Source: a virus
Lineage: Duplodnaviria; Heunggongvirae; Uroviricota; Caudoviricetes
Virus record (IMG/VR): IMGVR_UViG_2671180669_000005
Coordinates: 1 to 5,121 of that record
Length of the DNA stretch: 5,121 bases
Strand: one strand, 5' to 3'
The first letter of the stretch is position 1, and each line of letters begins with the position of its first letter. Below the pieces are notes generated by a model. That model searched no databases and was not told the origin of the DNA. It saw nothing but the letters and a program-made list of their open reading frames with translations. Shown piece after piece: positions 1 to 5,121 of this stretch. The position numbers were made by a program, and so were the translations under genes.

Positions 1-130
1 TCAGGGTATAAGGGGTTATGGCCACCGGACTACCAAACGGCTGCCAGCCCTCTTTCAGTTTATGTGTCAGCTTTTCCGCAAGATCTGACGGCGACGCCGC
101 CCTGACAACATCATAGTGTTTAAATGCCAT
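1..130 (-). CDS. Small hypothetical phage protein, 5' part only (ORF continues past the left edge of the window)
   Basis: ATG at 130..128 opens a frame that stays open to position 2 (MAFKHYDVVRAASPSDLAEKLTHKLKEGWQPFGSPVAITPYTL...). A purine-rich GGTGGAAAG sits 4-12 nt upstream. It lies downstream, in the late direction, of the Q / methylase / tRNA block, where lambdoid phages carry small ORFs ahead of the lysis cassette. Not in the supplied ORF track because no stop lies in the window. Family not assigned. Confidence 0.4.
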   Translation of the reverse strand, partial: MAFKHYDVVRAASPSDLAEKLTHKLKEGWQPFGSPVAITPYTL

Positions 131-390
131 GGTTCTTTCCACCATCTGAAAAATGATTCTTTAAAATACCTGACATGTAATACAGAAAAAACACAAAACC
201 ATACCTTAAATAAAAACCTCATCATCAAGCAGATATGCATGGATAAACTACAAGACGAGATATAAACCACCCTGCATTTAAATAAACAATAAACAACATC
301 AGAAAAATAATTCTGCTCTATGGTTTACATTCAAAAATATCATTTATACTTTTCAGAACATCACCAGCAAGGCATAAACAAGGAAACTAA

Positions 391-726
391 ATGAAGTGGA
401 TTGTGATTGATACAGTTATCCAGCCATCATGCGGAATATCTTTTTCAGTCATATGGAGTAAAATAAAATTAATAATCTGGTATCAATCGGATGCTTTCTT
501 ACCTCCTGAAAGTATATTTACACTGACTCACACAGGCATCATGCTCAATAACAAAGTGCTACCTGTAACCATTTACAACGTAGTACCATTCAATAAAACA
601 TTCTGGAATTTAATCAAAAACAGCCAGGAATGCCCTACAAATACAGATAACGTATTGAATGAATGCTTTAATAACCGTTGCACTCTGCAAATATGTCCTT
701 ATGGGCTAAAACAACAAAGTCCATAA
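391..726 (+). CDS. Hypothetical protein, AT-rich moron-like ORF (111 aa, 7 Cys, rich in I/N/K)
   Basis: Complete ORF with AGGA 6 nt upstream of the ATG (381-384). GC content is visibly lower than the flanking phage genes. It is opposite in orientation to the late operon and lies between the tRNA block and the downstream late genes, the slot where lambdoid phages carry morons. No recognisable motif; could still be a chance ORF in AT-rich DNA. Confidence 0.35.
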
Positions 727-746
727 GGAGTTTACTCACATCTGAC

Positions 747-782
747 AAAATCAATATAAACAGCCCCTCCGGAGAGGGGCTG
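747..782 (-). terminator. Rho-independent terminator candidate (9-bp perfect stem CAGCCCCTC / GAGGGGCTG, 4-nt loop)
   Basis: Perfect inverted repeat at 761-769 / 774-782 with loop CGGA. On the minus strand the hairpin is followed by TTTATATTGATTTTG (U-rich). On the plus strand the hairpin is followed by GAGAGTGG, so it is oriented for minus-strand transcripts, i.e. the tRNA cluster. Confidence 0.5.
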
Positions 783-1017
783 GAGAGTGGCGCTATGTGC
801 CATTGCATGGTGCCGGGTGCCTCCCGGTGAATTCAGTACCAGCACCTGAATCCGCGATTATCCCATATACCTACTCGCTGATTGCCCCTCCGCACAGGGG
901 GATTCACCATGCCAGTTTCTTTTAACAAACTCCCCGCAAACCAGACAACAGTCAACCGCCTGAATTGTGAGACATTTAAAAAAAAGGCCCACAAAAGCGA
1001 GCCAGGGAAAATAAGTG

Positions 1018-1094
1018 TGGCGCGTTGTACTGGATTCGAACCAGTGACCGATTGCTTAGAAGGCAATTGCTCTGTCCGGCTGAGCTAACAACGC
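1018..1094 (-). tRNA. tRNA-Arg (anticodon TCT, reads AGA/AGG)
   Basis: Reverse complement folds as a cloverleaf: acceptor GCGTTGT/ACAACGC, D-stem GCTC/GAGC, anticodon stem ATTGC/GCAAT with loop CTTCTAA, T-arm ACTGG-TTCGAAT-CCAGT, discriminator G, encoded CCA. 77 nt. Comparable to the rare-codon tRNA triplet (ileZ-argN-argO) between Q and stx in 933W-type phages (from memory). Confidence 0.85.
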
Positions 1095-1107
1095 ATGATG
1101 CAGATAA

Positions 1108-1184
1108 TGGACCGCCATCGGGGACTTGAACCCCGCGCAACCAGCTTCGAAGGCTGGCGCTCTTTCCTGATGAGCTAATGGCGG
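1108..1184 (-). tRNA. tRNA-Arg (anticodon TCG, reads CGA)
   Basis: Reverse complement: acceptor CCGCCAT/ATGGCGG (7 perfect pairs), D-stem GCTC/GAGC, anticodon stem CCAGC/GCTGG with loop CTTCGAA, T-arm CGGGG-TTCAAGT-CCCCG, discriminator T, encoded CCA. 77 nt. C1 at the 5' end is unusual but all four stems are perfect. Confidence 0.75.
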
Positions 1185-1191
1185 TATGTGA

Positions 1192-1267
1192 TGGTGGCCC
1201 TTGCTGGATTTGAACCAGCGACCTGGCGATTATGAGTCGCTCGCTCTCACCACTGAGCTAAAGGGCC
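1192..1267 (-). tRNA. tRNA with CAT anticodon (Ile2-lysidine type or Met; ileZ-like)
   Basis: Reverse complement: acceptor GGCCCTT/AAGGGCC, D-arm TAGCTCAGTGGTGAGAGC, anticodon loop CTCATAA, T-arm GCTGG-TTCAAAT-CCAGC, discriminator A, encoded CCA. 76 nt. Ile versus Met cannot be decided from sequence alone. Confidence 0.8.
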
Positions 1268-1316
1268 GGGAGCAGAATAATAATGGTGCGTAATTAATTC
1301 TGCAATCTCATCCGTT

Positions 1317-2366
1317 TCAAACGATTAAATCCTGAACTTCCCTGACTGTCTGCTCAAAACGTCCGGTCTCCAGTTCAACGCCAATCGCACGACGCCCGAG
1401 CGCCAGTGCCGCTTTTACCGTTGAACCTGAGCCCATAAAAAAATCTGCAACCAGGTCTCCCGGACGACTGCTTGCGCTGATTATCTGCTGCAGCATTTCT
1501 GCCGGTTTTTCGCACGGATGTTTCCCGGGATAGAACTGCACCGGTTTATGTGTCCACACATCCGTGTACGGCACCTGCGCCGTCACACCAAAATACCGCC
1601 GCAGATGCTTATATTCACTCTGCAGCTCCACATACTGCCGGTTCAGTGACGTATACGTATCCACCAGCTGGTGGTGGGGCTTTTCCAGTTCACCGCGCTG
1701 ATGTTTCTCTTCTGCCACCCGGGCAAACAGCGACTGTAATTTCAGATAATCGCTTTCGTTCGGTAGCTGCCACTGACTGGCACTGAACCAGTGCGACACC
1801 ATGTTTTTCTTTCCTGTGGCATCTGCAATCTGTTTTGCCGTTATCCCCAGGGCAGCTCGCGCATCACGAAAGTAAGAAATCAGCGGGGCCATCACATGCT
1901 GTTTCAGTGCACTGCCCTTCGCCGCATACCCGGCATCTTTCGGACGATACGGCCCCTGATAATGTTCCGCGAACAGAATGCGCTCTGTGGCGGGGAAATA
2001 CGCCCGCAGGCTTTCCTTGTTGCATCCGTTCCAGCGTCCGGACGGCTTCGCCCAGATAATATGGTTCAGCACACTGAAGCGTTCACGCATCATGATTTCG
2101 ATATCAGATGCCAGGCGATGACCACAGAACAGGTAAAGACTTCCGGCAGGTTTCAGCACCCGCCAGAACTGCGCCAGACACTGGTCCAGCCACTTCAGGT
2201 AATCATCGTCGCCCTTCCACTGGTTATCCCAGCCCTCAGGCTTCACTTTAAAGTACGGCGGGTCCGTGACTATCAGGTCAACAGAATTTTCGGGTAACGA
2301 CCGGATAAATTCCAGGCAGTCGGCGTTGATTAACTCACAACTGGATATTTTTACAGTATTAAGCAT
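1317..2366 (-). CDS. Beta-class N6-adenine (possibly N4-cytosine) DNA methyltransferase, CcrM-like fold, no cognate restriction gene in the window (apparent orphan)
   Basis: 349-aa ORF. N-terminal motif IV SVDLIVTDPPY with the preceding LINADCLEFIRSLPENSVDL closely resembling the CcrM N-terminus (from memory). HPCEKP is the beta-class HPxxKP motif. C-terminal AdoMet motif I DLVADFFMGSGST. Motif order IV then I defines the beta class. The central segment LGITAKQIADATGKKNMVSHW looks like a helix-turn-helix insertion. No Shine-Dalgarno is evident upstream of the ATG. Confidence 0.9.
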   Translation of the reverse strand: MLNTVKISSCELINADCLEFIRSLPENSVDLIVTDPPYFKVKPEGWDNQWKGDDDYLKWLDQCLAQFWRVLKPAGSLYLFCGHRLASDIEIMMRERFSVLNHIIWAKPSGRWNGCNKESLRAYFPATERILFAEHYQGPYRPKDAGYAAKGSALKQHVMAPLISYFRDARAALGITAKQIADATGKKNMVSHWFSASQWQLPNESDYLKLQSLFARVAEEKHQRGELEKPHHQLVDTYTSLNRQYVELQSEYKHLRRYFGVTAQVPYTDVWTHKPVQFYPGKHPCEKPAEMLQQIISASSRPGDLVADFFMGSGSTVKAALALGRRAIGVELETGRFEQTVREVQDLIV

Positions 2367-2458
2367 GGATCATTAAGCCTGTCTCTGATAGGCTCATTCT
2401 GCTTTTGCGCAAAGCAGTGGGCCTGAGGTTTGCTTGTGAACCCAACGCATGAGCAGAT

Positions 2459-2489
2459 GGCTGGTGGGTGCCCCTAACACCCACCAGCC
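2459..2489 (-). other. 12-bp perfect inverted repeat / stem-loop in the methyltransferase leader (copy 1)
   Basis: GGCTGGTGGGTG (2459-2470), 7-nt spacer, CACCCACCAGCC (2478-2489). No U-tract on either strand, so it is not an intrinsic terminator. Candidate RNA structure or a dimeric-protein operator. Confidence 0.5.
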
Positions 2490-2502
2490 GCCCATTTACC
2501 AC

Positions 2503-2530
2503 AAATAAAAAAGCCTTCACTGCGGAAGGC
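2503..2530 (-). terminator. Rho-independent terminator at the 3' end of the winged-helix gene (copy 1)
   Basis: Minus strand reads GCCTTC-CGCAGT-GAAGGC followed by TTTTTTATTTG. The gene's TGA stop lies inside the hairpin. Confidence 0.6.
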
Positions 2531-2714
2531 GTCTGTAACAACCGAACTGATAGTCTGCCAGACCCGCCATAACCAGCTGGGTCAGTATTAACTGGCAGCG
2601 TTCGCGTGAAAGGTAAGTATTCTGCGCTATCTCCCCGACTGTCGCCGGTTCGGTAACGCTTAATTCATTAAACACCACTCTGGCGGTTTCTGTCATATCC
2701 TGCTGTTTTAGCAT
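2517..2714 (-). CDS. Small winged-helix / HTH protein (65 aa), PapI/FaeA-like architecture (tentative), copy 1
   Basis: Encodes the same 65 aa as copy 2 (MLKQQDMTETARVVFNELSVTEPATVGEIAQNTYLSRERCQLILTQLVMAGLADYQFGCYRRLPQ). Start placed at ATG 2714..2712, which has AGGGA about 8 nt upstream. The supplied 94-aa ORF (2517..2801) is an upstream frame extension created by a 2-nt indel and is probably not translated. Confidence 0.55.
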   Translation of the reverse strand: MLKQQDMTETARVVFNELSVTEPATVGEIAQNTYLSRERCQLILTQLVMAGLADYQFGCYRRLPQ

Positions 2715-2836
2715 GTCTTTTTCCCTTTTCCGGTTAACGTGACACACCAATAACTCTTGTCGAAAAAGCCAGCAAGCTGAAAGACAGGTATTCACCGCCA
2801 CCAGCGCGTTTACTGTACTGACGCGATTTCAGTCAT

Positions 2837-2860
2837 AAAAAACCCGCCAGGCGGCGGGGT
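2837..2860 (-). terminator. tR'-like intrinsic terminator (copy 1)
   Basis: Minus strand reads CCCGCC-GCCT-GGCGGG followed by TTTTTT. About 40 nt downstream of the AACGAT pause element of PR' copy 1. Confidence 0.6.
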
Positions 2861-2895
2861 GTAAAAAATCTTCTAACGTCAGGCATAAAACGCCC

Positions 2896-2935
2896 ATCGT
2901 TAGAGCAAATTTACCACAGATTCGGGAAAAATCAA
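2896..2935 (-). promoter_or_regulatory. PR'-like late promoter with qut-type pause element (copy 1)
   Basis: Minus strand: -35 TTGATT (2935..2930), 16-nt spacer, extended -10 TGgTAAATT (-10 at 2913..2908), then tgctct AACGATGGGCG (AACGAT at 2901..2896). The -10 TAAATT and downstream AACGATGGG match the lambda PR'/qut arrangement as I recall it. Confidence 0.55.
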
Positions 2936-2940
2936 CAACA

Positions 2941-3359
2941 CTATCGCGTTACCCTCTTTAACTGCCGCTCCGCCCATGCCTCTTCAATGTCAAACCGAAC
3001 CACCAACGTATCGTAAAAGCGTTTCACTGATTTTTTCCACGTATCAAGCGTGATAGCACTCGTCACTTTGCATATGGCATTAAATGCCTCCGTTGATGGC
3101 AGCCTTTCACAGCCACGACCACCACAACGCTGGCAGTCTCTGATAACAGGCATACCACGTTTTACCGACTCTTCACGATGAATGGCGACACCACGCCCAC
3201 GGCAATCCTTACAGGCGGTGGAAACCTCACCCTTTCCGCCACACTCCGGACAGGCAACTTTTACCACCTCCCGATTTTTTTTCCATTCTTCCCAGTAAGA
3301 CGGATACACACCTTTCGTACACTTTGCCCATACCGGCGGCTTACCATCCGGATACTGGA
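2941..3359 (-). pseudogene. Q' : 3' fragment of an antiterminator Q gene (about 139 codons), lacking the N-terminal half
   Basis: Frame ends at TAG 2943..2941 and aligns to Q residues from QYPDGKPPVW to the C-terminal VTR, with about 14 aa substitutions concentrated in the last ~50 residues. It begins at the duplication junction with no ATG (the supplied ORF starts at a TTG at 3363). The duplicated methyltransferase ATG (3389..3387) reads into it out of frame, giving a 42-aa chimeric ORF (3261..3389). Confidence 0.65.
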
Positions 3360-3481
3360 ACAACTGGATATTTTTACAGTATTAAGCATGGATCATTAAG
3401 CCTGTCTCTGATAGGCTCATTCTGCTTTTGCGCAAAGCAGTGGGCCTGAGGTTTGCTTGTGAACCCAACGCATGAGCAGAT

Positions 3482-3512
3482 GGCTGGTGGGTGCCCCTAA
3501 CACCCACCAGCC
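3482..3512 (-). other. 12-bp perfect inverted repeat / stem-loop (copy 2)
   Basis: Identical to 2459-2489: GGCTGGTGGGTG, 7-nt spacer, CACCCACCAGCC. Confidence 0.5.
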
Positions 3513-3525
3513 GCCCATTTACCAC

Positions 3526-3553
3526 AAATAAAAAAGCCTTCACTGCGGAAGGC
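3526..3553 (-). terminator. Rho-independent terminator at the 3' end of the winged-helix gene (copy 2)
   Basis: Same hairpin GCCTTC-CGCAGT-GAAGGC plus TTTTTTATTTG on the minus strand; the stop codon is in the loop. Confidence 0.6.
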
Positions 3554-3737
3554 GTCTGTAACAACCGAACTGATAGTCTGCCAGACCCGCCATAACCAGC
3601 TGGGTCAGTATTAACTGGCAGCGTTCGCGTGAAAGGTAAGTATTCTGCGCTATCTCCCCGACTGTCGCCGGTTCGGTAACGCTTAATTCATTAAACACCA
3701 CTCTGGCGGTTTCTGTCATATCCTGCTGTTTTAGCAT
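3540..3737 (-). CDS. Small winged-helix / HTH protein (65 aa), PapI/FaeA-like architecture (tentative), copy 2
   Basis: ORF with AAGGA 6 nt upstream of the ATG. Predicted helix - turn (EPATVGEIAQNT) - recognition helix (RERCQLILTQLVMAGL), consistent with a small winged-helix regulator. The EPxT...IA...LS...LLT...G spacing resembles PapI/FaeA as I recall it. Protein is identical in both copies while the upstream non-coding DNA carries an indel. Confidence 0.6.
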   Translation of the reverse strand: MLKQQDMTETARVVFNELSVTEPATVGEIAQNTYLSRERCQLILTQLVMAGLADYQFGCYRRLPQ

Positions 3738-3857
3738 GTCTTTTCCTTTTCCGGTTAACGTGACACACCAATAACTCTTGTCGAAAAAGCCAGCAAGCTG
3801 AAAGACAGGTATTCACCGCCACCAGCGCGTTTACTGTACTGACGCGATTTCAGTCAT

Positions 3858-3880
3858 AAAAAACCCGCTCGGCGGCGGGT
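3858..3880 (-). terminator. tR'-like intrinsic terminator (copy 2)
   Basis: Minus strand reads CCCGC-CGCCGA-GCGGG followed by TTTTTT. Shorter stem than copy 1. Confidence 0.55.
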
Positions 3881-3916
3881 TGTAGAAACTCTTCTAACGT
3901 CAGGCATAAAACGCCC

Positions 3917-3956
3917 ATCGTTATGACGAATTTACCACAGATTCCGGAAAAATCAA
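3917..3956 (-). promoter_or_regulatory. PR'-like late promoter with qut-type pause element, immediately downstream of Q (copy 2)
   Basis: Minus strand: -35 TTGATT (3956..3951), 16-nt spacer, TGgTAAATT (-10 at 3934..3929), cgtcat AACGATGGGCG (AACGAT at 3922..3917). Starts 6 nt after the Q stop codon. Confidence 0.6.
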
Positions 3957-3961
3957 CCTTG

Positions 3962-4783
3962 TTACCTAGTTACCTTTTTTAACTGCCGCTCAGCCCATGC
4001 TTCTTCAATATCAAACCGGGTCACCAGCGCATCATAAAATTTCTTAACTGTTTTTTCCCATGACGCGCGTGTTATCTGGTTTGTCACCTCGCATATAGCA
4101 TTAAATGCCTCCGTTGATGGTAGTCTTTCATAGCCACGACCACCACAACGCTGGCAGTCTCTGATAACAGGCATACCACGTTTTACCGACTCTTCACGAT
4201 GAATGGCGACACCACGCCCACGGCAATCCTTACAGGCGGTGGAAACCTCACCCTTTCCGCCACACTCCGGACAGGCAACTTTTACCACCTCCCTGACTTT
4301 TTTCCATTCTTCCCAGTAAGACGGATACACACCTTTCGTACACTTTGCCCATACCGGCGGCTTACCATCCGGATACTGGATCTTGTTTGTAAAAACCTCG
4401 CTTTCAATAAATTTTTTTCCGTGACAGCAGGGGCACTGTTTTTTGCTCGCCGCGCTACGGGCATAATCTTCAAACGCATACGAAGCCATAATACGCATCA
4501 CTGCCGGTTTTATTTCTGCCGGGAGTTTTCTTAACGCCGCCACGCGATCACACCGACTGAGTGCATATTCTGTCAGCAATTCTGTTGCCCGCTCTCTGTC
4601 ATTCATACTAATGCCCATTTTCCCAAGGAACGCAGAAAACCCCATCTCAGCCCGATTCTGTGTCATGCCCTGCGCGGCCATCACATCAGTGATACTCAGC
4701 GCATCTTTCGACGTTGAGGCCGATGCATCAGTCAGGCCGGGGGATTTTGGGGAGTAGTATTTCGGTAAATCTTCCAGTTTCAT
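3962..4783 (-). CDS. Q: Late-gene antiterminator Q, lambda-Q family, with an enlarged zinc-binding region (four CxxCxGxG-type motifs)
   Basis: 273 aa. Shares with lambda Q (recalled sequence) SPKSP near the N-terminus, DVMAA.GM, YA..DY.RSAA, CxxCHG, C.RCxGxGY.R.PS, W..TVK..YDALV and a C-terminal VTR. Contains CPCCHGKK, CPECGGKG, CKDCRGRG and CQRCGGRG. Start ATG overlaps the rusA stop (ATGA). Followed directly by a PR'/qut-like promoter. Confidence 0.85.
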   Translation of the reverse strand: MKLEDLPKYYSPKSPGLTDASASTSKDALSITDVMAAQGMTQNRAEMGFSAFLGKMGISMNDRERATELLTEYALSRCDRVAALRKLPAEIKPAVMRIMASYAFEDYARSAASKKQCPCCHGKKFIESEVFTNKIQYPDGKPPVWAKCTKGVYPSYWEEWKKVREVVKVACPECGGKGEVSTACKDCRGRGVAIHREESVKRGMPVIRDCQRCGGRGYERLPSTEAFNAICEVTNQITRASWEKTVKKFYDALVTRFDIEEAWAERQLKKVTR

Positions 4784-5121
4784 TTTTTGACCTGCCCTTC
4801 AAGCATTATGGGGTAAATCTTCACCCCCAGACGTCCACCAGATACTGGCTGAGCACGAACGATATTGATTTCATCAAACTGCTCATCGTCCATTAGCAAC
4901 CCCGCATGCGTCAGCGCATCCAGCGGCGCTTTCAGAATATTGTCCAGGTCACGGCGGCGCTTATCCGGTGGTTCTGCAATAATTTTTATTGCCAACCTTC
5001 CGGACAGGCTTAATTTCAGCCGCTGCTGGCGAACAATAAGCGCCACTGCCCGGCGATAACGCTCCCCGGCTTTTGATACAAAATATGTGCTGCCACGACG
5101 ACGCCAGTAAGTGTTCACCGT
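4780..5121 (-). CDS. rusA: Holliday-junction resolvase RusA (N-terminal ~12-15 aa lie beyond the right edge)
   Basis: Frame is open to the window edge; the supplied start at 5118 is an internal GTG. Matches the recalled RusA sequence: YxxxRGxxxVSxxG near the N-terminus, catalytic-region DKRRRDLDN (RusA DRRRRDLDN), and GGRL near the C-terminus. Sits immediately upstream of Q as in lambdoid nin regions. Confidence 0.85.
   Translation of the reverse strand, partial: TVNTYWRRRGSTYFVSKAGERYRRAVALIVRQQRLKLSLSGRLAIKIIAEPPDKRRRDLDNILKAPLDALTHAGLLMDDEQFDEINIVRAQPVSGGRLGVKIYPIMLEGQVKK

Follow-up and report, generated by a model that had tools for sequence, protein, structure and literature searches.

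A conserved structured element upstream of a phage M.EcoGII-type methyltransferase gene, most likely a small RNA of the opposite strand

In this study, we report a conserved nucleic-acid structure located in front of a phage DNA methyltransferase gene, which, judged from comparative sequence analysis, is most likely a structured RNA of about 100 nt on the strand opposite the gene. The element was analysed in a window of 5,121 nucleotides (positions 1 to 5,121 of IMG/VR virus record IMGVR_UViG_2671180669_000005, Caudoviricetes) and has conserved counterparts at about 200 loci in phages and prophages of Enterobacterales, Vibrio and Gilliamella. It is unannotated and absent from Rfam 15. Its helices covary, its strand bias is consistent across the family, and promoter-like and LexA-like motifs precede it. 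We propose, at about even confidence, that it is a cis-antisense small RNA of the + strand which locks a toxic late gene, here the M.EcoGII-type methyltransferase; such an RNA would probably keep the methyltransferase silent until phage induction.

Methods

A covariance model (R1) and an alignment (A2) of the element were first built on the methyltransferase strand. A structure-blind alignment of 32 diverse representatives was made with MAFFT in + strand orientation and folded using RNAalifold. Coordinates refer to the window and are collected in Table 1.

Table 1. Location of the features discussed in the text
Feature	Position	Strand	Basis or remark
349-aa beta-class N6-adenine DNA methyltransferase, M.EcoGII/M.EcoGI type	1317..2366	-	PF01555, E 2e-44
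LexA-box-like palindrome TACTGTAAAAATATCCAGTT (CTG-N10-CAG)	2339..2358	.	Motif count, family conservation
Supplied 60-aa ORF, not a gene	2359..2541	-	Frame not conserved; no Pfam match
Predicted promoter of the + strand RNA	2366..2394	+	Conserved motif at fixed distance
Methyltransferase translation-initiation region with hairpin P5	2367..2398	-	Fold of variants
5' hairpin P3' (CUGCUUU/AAAGCAG)	2399..2417	+	At or just after the predicted start (about 2401)
Closing helix P0' (UGGGC with GCCCA)	2418-2422 with 2490-2494; RG/UU extension to 2416-2417 and 2495-2496	+	
Helix P2'	2428-2438 with 2448-2458, loop 2439-2447	+	Fold; decides strand
Helix P1' (inverted repeat)	2459..2489, loop 2471-2477	+	Fold and covariation
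Intrinsic terminator of the upstream winged-helix gene	2513..2530	-	Terminator scan
Second identical unit, shifted +1023	3362..3519 (LexA-like box 3362-3381, promoter 3389-3417, P3' 3422-3440, junction 3441-3519, repeat 3482-3512)	+	Repeat analysis, motif matches

Results

The inverted repeat and its duplicate

A preliminary description of this DNA had reported a perfect 12-bp inverted repeat ahead of the methyltransferase gene. The repeat is real: its arms, GGCTGGTGGGTG (2459-2470) and CACCCACCAGCC (2478-2489), are 100% complementary across a 7-nt spacer, and when the window was shuffled 100 times with dinucleotides preserved, perfect hairpin repeats (spacer 3-12) had maximum lengths of 6-11 bp, never 12. 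As also described, the identical arm pair recurs, at 3482-3493/3501-3512. Both copies belong to direct repeats that are 100% identical (2337-2636 = 3360-3659, spacing 1023), and the second is opposite a methyltransferase start that is joined to a truncated Q gene. Two shorter hairpins of the same description were found as well, CTGCTTT/AAAGCAG at 2399-2417 and GCCT/AGGC, present as AGCCT/AGGCT, at 2376-2394.

The view that the repeat is not a terminator holds. On the minus strand it is followed by AUCUGCUC in place of a T-run, on the + strand it is separated by GCCCA from a run of only 2-4 U, and an intrinsic terminator scan of the window did not list the repeat on either strand. On the late-gene strand, the module is bounded upstream by the terminator of the winged-helix gene, whose product matches TrmB weakly (E 0.003). 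A terminator-like hairpin stands ahead of the element in most loci read by eye, regardless of the upstream gene. The 60-aa ORF crossing the region, previously taken for a by-product of the structure, is rejected as a gene because only 5 of 113 unique homologous leaders keep its frame open; leader lengths among homologues differ by non-multiples of 3.

The methyltransferase and its start region

The enzyme carries DPPY at residues 35-38 and FFMGSG at 309-314, which is the beta-class order. It is 95% identical to the enzyme of phage 1720a-02, which has been called very similar to M.EcoGII (PMC5778455); the assignment to the M.EcoGII type thus runs through the phage 1720a-02 enzyme. M.EcoGII is silent in the lysogen and harmful if constitutively expressed (PMC5778455).

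No purine-rich stretch was found within about 12 nt of the ATG (2364-2366), in agreement with the earlier remark that the gene lacks a Shine-Dalgarno sequence, nor ahead of the ATG in any of the 61 sequences of alignment A2. The GATC noted 1 nt from the ATG lies at 2368-2371. Next to the start codon the sense strand can form hairpin P5 (AGCCU/AGGCU in the window, 2376-2394), which folds better on the methyltransferase strand in most of 51 unique variants, with arms that co-change. A split Shine-Dalgarno brought near the AUG by P5 was considered and rejected, since the GAG/GGAG is itself within the stem. Translational coupling or an upstream start was likewise discarded: one codon ahead of the ATG there is an in-frame TGA, and inspection by eye revealed no conserved upstream ORF.

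A four-helix element supported by covariation

The repeat had been presented as an operator-like palindrome that could also form a stable RNA hairpin. That it forms a real, selected nucleic-acid structure was borne out, but it is no stand-alone hairpin and makes up only one of four helices, namely P1' of an element of about 100 nt which consists of a 5' hairpin (P3') and a three-way junction. In the junction P0' (span 2418..2496) encloses P2' and P1', and a short U-run follows.

RNAalifold recovered P0', P2' and P1' from the structure-blind 32-sequence alignment. In this alignment 96.3% of the cells were paired and 13 of 27 pairs had changed on both sides; none of 500 shuffles matched any pairing measure, and slid controls were 37-57% paired. 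Covariation across homologous prophages, earlier proposed as a check, therefore supports the structure through compensatory changes. Both sides of P1' had changed in 8/12 and 8/10 pairs in two analyses, and P0' shows two independent double changes, one in locus L017 (G>A with C>U) and one in Gilliamella locus L075 (C>G with G>C). The P3' position is occupied by a palindromic hairpin in all lineages, with differing sequences (GCTTTnGCGCnAAAGC, GCTGTGTGCACATCAGC, GCTTGTACAAGC, GCCGATCGGC). Conservation also extends to two single-stranded segments: CCUUGGUU, which separates P0' from P2', and CACA, which follows the U-run. A possible pseudoknot of the UGUGA flank with UCACA in P2 is backed by one compensatory event only (Vibrio). 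As the U-run has 2-4 U and is absent in Gilliamella, no convincing intrinsic terminator was recognised for the + strand RNA.

Distribution and facing genes

Covariance model R1 matched both window copies with 140.9 bits, and also homologues outside its seed (Vibrio, E 1e-7 to 1e-9; Gilliamella, E 3e-5). The element was found in 1816 of 5426 complete E. coli genomes, with up to seven copies per genome. The repeat and the methyltransferase belong to one conserved module. Among viral matches 104/120 face an M.EcoGII-like gene. Elsewhere the element faces Mom (PF25680, E 7e-71), a C5 methyltransferase (PF00145), a ParB_N protein, Com plus a methyltransferase, or a holin. Both mom and the methyltransferases that replace it are harmful and kept under strict control (PMC3299994). 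Roughly one in five of the divergent loci lacks a modification gene and has a holin facing the element, so that late transcripts in general may be the target.

No family of Rfam 15 reached its gathering score at the element; the only real Rfam matches in the window were three tRNAs and STnc100, all elsewhere. The known prophage sRNAs AgvB, AsxR, Pas, STnc100 and StxS were dismissed as counterparts on account of their different locations, and the AgvB and AsxR models gave no match. A full-text literature search for the arm sequences and methyltransferase peptides returned nothing relevant.

The structure most likely belongs to the + strand

The preliminary description had read the structure as a minus-strand leader of the methyltransferase. 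Wobble pairs and folding energies do not support that assignment and favour the + strand. In the structure-blind alignment the wobble cells amount to 161 G.U on the + strand against 11 A.C. P2 is paired to 99.1-99.2% on the + strand, compared with 69.7-74.7% on the methyltransferase strand, where its mismatches are all of the A.C type; for P1 alone, the model-fitted alignment gives a slight advantage to the methyltransferase strand (93.7% vs 89.8% paired). The minimum-energy fold of the + strand is a closed three-way junction in all 97 unique cores, and it is the stabler one in 83 of them, the strands differing by -4.4 kcal/mol on average. For divergent variants the folding energies are -32 to -43 kcal/mol on the + strand and -16 to -35 kcal/mol on the other, and among the GAC-type loci the + strand is stabler in 65/66.

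In the window itself, a folding energy of -49.8 kcal/mol (z -4.85, ensemble frequency 0.33) was obtained for the + strand, and the minus-strand folding advised earlier gave a nearly equal -49.1. Because the two strands of the window fold almost equally, the strand call rests on the family and not on the window sequence. The same strand bias is expected from G.T-tolerant single-stranded DNA.

A predicted promoter and a LexA-like box

A conserved extended -10 (TGnTAnnnT), which emerged only from the + strand alignment, lies 7 nt upstream of the element on the + strand. TAnnnT occurs at a fixed distance from the element in 135 of 137 unique sequences (TAGGCT 106, TAAGCT 12, others); TG is found at -15/-14 in 120/135, T[AG]GATC occupies the -35 position in 120, and all members of the 32-sequence alignment have A at hexamer position 2. 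The window thus has the sigma-70 extended -10 pattern (TGn plus TAnnnT at the fixed distance), with TG at 2386-2387 and TAGGCT at 2389-2394. TGGATC (2366-2371), at the -35 position, includes the conserved GATC and shares bases with the methyltransferase start codon; its -35 match is weak (3/6). A stricter sigma-70 scan of both strands around the ATG gave no conserved promoter, and a window-wide promoter scan gave nothing at this site. Promoter activity, a start near 2401 and the 3' end of the RNA are predictions, and we infer its transcription, its end and its action.

The LexA-like box lies within methyltransferase codons 3-10, about 8 nt upstream of the + strand -35 position. Two matches to this motif were found in the window, with 0.01 expected, and CTG-N10-CAG was found in 167/195 loci. 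The box is conserved at the DNA and not the protein level, as ACT (110/110) and AGT (106/110) are kept and the intervening amino acids vary. It agrees with TACTG(TA)5CAGTA at 16/20 positions when counted by eye, and with its A/T-rich centre and coding-independent conservation it has the sequence of a LexA box. In the common type it is situated at about -43 to -62 of the predicted promoter, which is unusual for a repressor; in locus L091, of the C5-methyltransferase type, it overlaps the -35 and spacer of the + strand promoter as read by eye.

Discussion

Proposed function of a putative + strand RNA

In our proposal the RNA gene would lie within, and antisense to, the 5' untranslated region of a phage late transcript that carries a toxic modification gene, and the inverted repeat would be the 3'-proximal hairpin (P1') of a small structured RNA. 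The unit on the + strand would read LexA-type box (2339-2358), promoter, start near 2401, hairpin (2399-2417), junction (2418-2494) and U-run. In the lysogen, the RNA would be made continuously. Because its gene lies opposite the leader, it would be perfectly complementary to the methyltransferase message and could pair at about -30 to -135 of stray methyltransferase or late transcripts. Since that message has no Shine-Dalgarno and has a hairpin next to the AUG, such pairing may leave it untranslated, cut by RNase III, or both. Upon induction, massive Q-antiterminated late transcription would run head-on through the small promoter and outnumber the RNA, and the enzyme would thus be made only in a cell that is already doomed.

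Alternative explanations

Alternatively, the RNA might act mainly in trans, its position opposite the leader being incidental or serving only to couple expression. We consider this unlikely, though it has several points in its favour: the promoter-like element of its own, the compact and stable fold with a 5' hairpin, the conserved single-stranded CCUUGGUU and CACA, and the presence of the element beside holins without a modification gene. There is also a precedent, as lambdoid prophages carry trans-acting sRNAs in the region after PR' (PMC4104026). An RNA of this kind does not account for the fact that the position and direction of the element with respect to the first codon of the toxic late gene are always the same, even between unrelated enzyme families.

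That the element is instead a minus-strand cis-regulatory leader of the methyltransferase, acting through translational control, as an RNase III site or as a two-fold switch (P0+P2+P5 against AAUGGGCG/CGCUCAU plus GGCCCAC/GUGAGCC pairings), appears improbable. Such a leader would fit the fixed distance upstream of the first start codon, be it of a methyltransferase, com, Mom or C5 methyltransferase gene, as well as the missing Shine-Dalgarno and the behaviour of P5 by the AUG. Moreover, AAUGGGCG/CGCUCAU is 93% paired through wobble changes, GGCCCAC/GUGAGCC shows G-C to A-U changes at one pair, and the sense core is also a closed junction in 88/97. The wobble count, the A.C mismatches of P2 and the lower stability in 83/97 cores and 65/66 divergent loci all point to the other strand, and the alternative pairings lack two-sided changes and match shuffle expectation. 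On the wobble and energy tests we rejected a riboswitch-like two-state sense leader as the main reading. As P5 and the alternative sense-strand pairing exist, the mRNA leader may also be structured.

A role at the DNA level is very unlikely. The + strand could fold while single-stranded, in priming or recombination, or the octamer GCTGGTGG, identical to Chi, could shield the late region from RecBCD. The octamer is present exactly at 2460-2467 (+), within arm GGCTGGTGGGTG, at 2481-2488 (-) and in their copies, as a putative Chi hotspot. The window has 8 Chi octamers where 0.18 are expected, Chi lies on the late-gene strand in 47/66 unique elements, and by per-column entropy the Chi arm of Enterobacteriaceae is nearly invariant while its partner varies; folded DNA also tolerates G.T wobbles. 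Nevertheless, Chi is absent in many members (Providencia, Proteus, Serratia, Vibrio, Gilliamella, and the Mom and C5 types), which keep the hairpin by compensatory changes, and it was rejected for that reason as the cause of conservation despite its enrichment in the window. Nor does Chi call for a three-way junction, four covarying helices or a promoter-like element, and we know of no single-stranded stage of lambdoid phages that requires such a signal.

The suggestion that the palindrome is an operator for a dimeric protein (the winged-helix protein, the methyltransferase HTH insert or LexA), prompted by the perfect symmetry with a 7-bp spacer in the window and by the winged-helix gene upstream, is scarcely credible, because that symmetry is derived and most copies are asymmetric with a bulge or G.U, many pairing only through G.U wobbles that break DNA symmetry; the arms are replaced wholesale elsewhere with pairing kept (GACTGTAAAGGTG/CACCCTTACAGTC, GGTGTGCATGATG/CATCATGCACACC), the element occurs without a winged-helix gene (mEp460, LLS and many others), and the LexA-like motif is found at another site, at a distance of 100 nt.

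Implications of the proposed antisense lock

Should the RNA exist, a regulatory RNA gene has gone unannotated in about one third of the sequenced E. coli genomes and in many Stx-converting phages. The silence in lysogens of the widely used M.EcoGII and its relatives, which are lethal when expressed, would then be explained, and one control module would tie together unrelated modification families (N6-adenine, C5-cytosine, Mom) and connect them to the SOS response and Dam methylation. The broader idea of a widespread phage RNA class, a portable antisense lock on toxic hypermodification and lysis genes wired through the LexA box and GATC, is a speculation that we hold to be rather unlikely. A feedback loop could also operate, in which the methyltransferase methylates the RNA promoter (A-11 of TAGGCT and the -35 GATC) and turns the RNA off, which could commit the cell to full modification. 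[quoted passage not shown] The case also cautions that a "leader hairpin" can belong to the opposite strand.

Comparison with known systems

The sole near match in Rfam was Pseudomonas sRNA P26 (RF00630, + strand 2426-2490), whose second hairpin, AUGGCuGGUGgCU...GcCACCgGCC, is close to P1'. It was rejected, having 24.2 bits against a gathering score of 36 and a first hairpin that does not align; P26 also belongs to another host group and context. Lambda OOP, anti-Q (PaQ), P22 sar and P1/P7 C4 are phage cis-antisense RNAs, which resemble the proposed RNA in being short, structured, placed opposite or beside a regulatory or lethal phage gene and acting by pairing. They differ in location, sequence and fold, and the Rfam C4 model, like all other Rfam models, gave no match.

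With the com-mom system of phage Mu the element would share its purpose, to hold back a host-harming modification gene until late lytic growth under layered post-transcriptional control (PMC3299994), and a connection to GATC and Dam; in some phages it precedes Mom-family genes and com-methyltransferase operons. In Mu, however, the zinc-ribbon protein Com opens an mRNA hairpin, in addition to control by OxyR/Dam and the C activator, and no antisense RNA is known, whereas the conserved structure described here most likely lies opposite the gene.

SymR/symE and IstR-1/tisB of E. coli are SOS-linked type I toxin-antitoxin pairs. Type I toxins are small, usually hydrophobic proteins, whereas the gene faced here encodes a methyltransferase of 349 aa (elsewhere Mom, a C5 methyltransferase or a holin), so that the likeness is one of logic only. 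The RNA here has a three-way junction and no sequence relation to SymR or IstR-1, its target would be a Q-antiterminated phage late transcript, and the system is predicted from sequence. What they would have in common is an SOS-tied harmful gene silenced by a small antisense RNA with its own promoter, which pairs in the 5' untranslated region of the toxin message. The predicted promoter lies at the start of the harmful gene as that of SymR does, and the proposed pairing site, like that of IstR-1, is well upstream of the start codon.

Organisation of the locus

The window covers the region for late regulation in a lambdoid Stx-type prophage, and all the window's genes lie on the minus strand. 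Its methyltransferase is 95% identical to the counterpart in phage 1720a-02, an enzyme very similar to M.EcoGII; the latter is described as a non-specific adenine methyltransferase, silent in the lysogen and damaging under constitutive expression (Murray et al., PMC5778455). A 1023-bp tandem duplication (2337-3359 repeated as 3360-4382) starts within the Q gene and reaches the first methyltransferase codons, its junction lying at an ACTGGA microhomology that Q and the methyltransferase share. It yields a truncated Q and a second complete RNA unit, and the inverted repeat ahead of the methyltransferase is therefore present twice; an E. albertii homolog (L010) has a single copy of the duplicated segment. 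The two PR'/tR'-like regions are 90% identical to each other. In other phages, unrelated genes replace the winged-helix ORF that precedes the repeat-containing element in the window. STnc100 has been related, in a 2026 preprint, to the PasD prophage sRNAs, located near Q and LpxR.

Features of the window
Feature	Position	Strand	Remarks
111-aa ORF	391-726	+	no Pfam match; sole sizeable + strand ORF
STnc100	752-941	-	strong Rfam match, 132 bits, E 6e-30; downstream of tRNA genes
Three tRNAs	1018-1267	-	
N6-adenine methyltransferase	1317-2366	-	349 aa
Chi octamers	1661-1674, 2460-2488, 2798-2805, 3483-3511, 3819-3826		exact match
Winged-helix ORF, two copies	2517-2717, 3540-3737	-	65-66 aa; weak TrmB-like match, E 0.003
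Layout like that of PR'/tR' and its short transcript, after each Q copy	2843-2940, 3862-3960	-	promoter-like TTGATT-N16-TAAATT (by eye), then strong terminator (2843-2858, 3862-3881)
Truncated Q	2941-3363		
Q antiterminator	3962-4783	-	
RusA	4780-5118	-	

The 12-bp perfect inverted repeat with its 7-nt spacer, noted in the preliminary description, is real and above chance, 100 dinucleotide shuffles having reached at most 11 bp. That description also holds for the minor hairpins, the terminator upstream, the GATC next to the ATG and the lack of a Shine-Dalgarno sequence. As had been suspected, the 60-aa ORF is no gene: of 113 unique homologous leaders just 5 keep its frame open, and leader lengths vary by non-multiples of three.

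Structure and strand of the conserved element

Four helices make up the element: a closing stem (UGGGC/GCCCA), two hairpins enclosed by it, one being the repeat, and another hairpin outside. The closing stem is backed by two independent double changes, in the homologous loci L017 and L075 (Gilliamella). The initial structure model was built on the methyltransferase strand. Pairing of helix P2 (P2' on the + strand) was 74.7% on that strand versus 99.2% on the opposite strand, and each of the 150 mismatched cells was an A.C, which becomes G.U on the opposite strand. The strand opposite the methyltransferase folded more stably in 59 of 66 sequences (z -4.08 versus -2.70), in 83 of 97 unique cores and in 65 of 66 divergent loci, the strand difference for divergent variants being 10-19 kcal/mol; on this strand, the closed three-way junction was the minimum-energy fold in all 97 unique cores. 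When 32 diverse representatives were aligned in the opposite orientation using MAFFT, without structural guidance, the junction was recovered by RNAalifold, with 96.3% of cells paired and two-sided changes in 13 of 27 pairs. None of 500 shuffles attained these values, slid controls were paired at 37-57%, and the + strand had 161 G.U versus 11 A.C cells in this alignment. Pairing, folding energies and the G.U excess thus identify the structured strand as the + strand of the window, antisense to the methyltransferase. This assignment rests on the family and not on the window copy, the strands of which fold near-equally (-49.8 versus -49.1 kcal/mol) because its repeat is perfect.

A conserved CACA after the U-run (+ strand 2412-2417 and 2495-2505; columns 139-146 of A5, the alignment of the element) is complementary to UGUG in P2', with one compensatory change, in Vibrio; this may represent a tertiary or alternative pairing.

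Predicted promoter and LexA-type box

In the + strand alignment, a TGnTAnnnT block, with an invariant A at hexamer position 2, lies seven nt upstream of the first hairpin. Among 137 unique sequences the hexamer reads TAGGCT (106), TAAGCT (12), or TAGACT, TAGTAT, TAAAAT and others. Its distance is fixed in 135 sequences, 120 of which have TG at -15/-14, and T[AG]GATC occupies the -35 position in 120, its GATC being the conserved one beside the ATG. The block fits the pattern of an extended -10 element and is taken as a predicted promoter; a scan with a stricter promoter consensus gave no match at the element. The closing stem leads into a U-run of just 2-4 residues.

A LexA-type box, TACTGT-N9-CAGT, lies within methyltransferase codons 3-10 (two matches in the window versus 0.01 expected), and the form CTG-N10-CAG is found in 167 of 195 loci. 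The box is conserved at the DNA level: codon 4 is ACT in 110/110, codon 9 is AGT in 106/110 and codon 8 ends in C in 109/110, whereas the amino acids between the box codons vary and the codons nearby have the usual level of synonymous change. The common type has the box ~8 nt past the -35 of the predicted + strand promoter; in the type facing a C5-methyltransferase it overlaps the -35 and spacer.

Distribution and genes facing the element

BLAST matched the region in 59 phage records. It is also present, at up to 7 copies per genome, in 1816 of the 5426 complete genomes of E. coli, which have no RNA annotated there; RefSeq has no annotation at this place. A protein-guided scan using one genome per species gave 80 loci, and ~135 nt upstream of the methyltransferase are conserved across Enterobacterales. 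A covariance model seeded with 61 sequences recovered members outside the seed in Vibrio, where the element is followed by a Com-like zinc-ribbon ORF and then the methyltransferase, plus one in Gilliamella; DNA-pattern scans of viral contigs added ~190 loci.

An M.EcoGII-like gene is faced in 104 of 120 viral hits. The divergent type comprised 66 loci, with the leading position taken by a Mom-family protein in 16 (PF25680, E 7e-71), a holin-like protein in roughly a dozen (N-terminal sequence by eye, without Pfam check), a Com-like ORF in about 10 (PF10122), an N6 methyltransferase in 7, a C5 methyltransferase in 4 to 6 (PF00145) and a ParB_N protein in about 4. Mom, like the non-specific methyltransferases found in its place, harms the host and is kept under strict control (PMC3299994). 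What the faced genes share is a late function toxic to the host, located where the late gene cluster begins.

A Com-like zinc-ribbon ORF (PF10122) lies directly upstream of an M.EcoGII-like methyltransferase in L069, L070, L072, L083, L085, L086 and about 10 viral loci (e.g. L233, L248), an arrangement like that of Mu com-mom. Where the junction element was found in this group, it lies ahead of com; L085 and L086 gave no hit.

Another conserved methyltransferase leader occurs in Vibrio, Aliivibrio and Psychromonas (L074, L076-L080, L082, L084, L088, L089), ~150 nt upstream of position 1501. Its order is GATGCCTTGAGTACCTGAGACCCA, TGGAGAGGAAGCA, a G+C hairpin and GTATTCAAGGCTCT, then GGAG and ATG, and a LexA box (ACTGTATAAATACACAGTT) often precedes it. 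This leader may represent a further RNA motif with no relation to the first.

Proposed function

Beyond the structure, strand bias, motif conservation and gene association, we infer that a small RNA would be made from its own predicted promoter as a perfect complement of the late message from about -30 to -135. The target would be a message without a Shine-Dalgarno sequence, in which hairpin P5 (2376-2394) adjoins the AUG. In the lysogen, pairing would block translation of stray transcripts or trigger their cleavage, and after induction, head-on Q-antiterminated late transcription would overwhelm the small RNA.

A sense-strand leader, as the preliminary description had proposed, is possible as a second layer, given wobble-compatible alternative pairings and P5, a hairpin that folds more stably on the mRNA strand and has arms that change together, but it leaves the strand bias unexplained. 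A trans-acting role for the small RNA is conceivable. Chi (GCTGGTGG) is exact within the conserved arm, is enriched in the 5.1-kb window (8 versus 0.18 expected) and occurs on both strands at two palindromic sites, CCACCAGCTGGTGG (1661-1674) and the inverted repeat itself; many members lack it, however, so that it can be no more than an addition specific to some lineages. A fold in single-stranded DNA would show the G.T bias too, with no other sign in its favour. The earlier suggestion of a helix-turn-helix operator is not supported, since across many lineages the arms are wholly different yet complementary (GACTGTAAAGGTG/CACCCTTACAGTC, GGTGTGCATGATG/CATCATGCACACC, GACCGCCAGTAG/CTACTGACGGCC), so that the repeat is maintained for pairing and not for sequence, which by itself argues against an operator.

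No Rfam 15 family matches the element, the best being P26 at 24.2 bits (threshold 36) with one hairpin alone aligning; the RNAs in the literature on EHEC/EPEC prophage sRNAs are located elsewhere, and a full-text literature search for the element sequence gave no match. The proposed antisense RNA would follow the same logic as SymR/symE and IstR-1/tisB, in which a small RNA opposes a toxic gene, and would serve the same purpose as com-mom. On this reading the element would belong with known cis-antisense regulators of toxic genes, set apart by its three-way-junction fold and unusual clientele.
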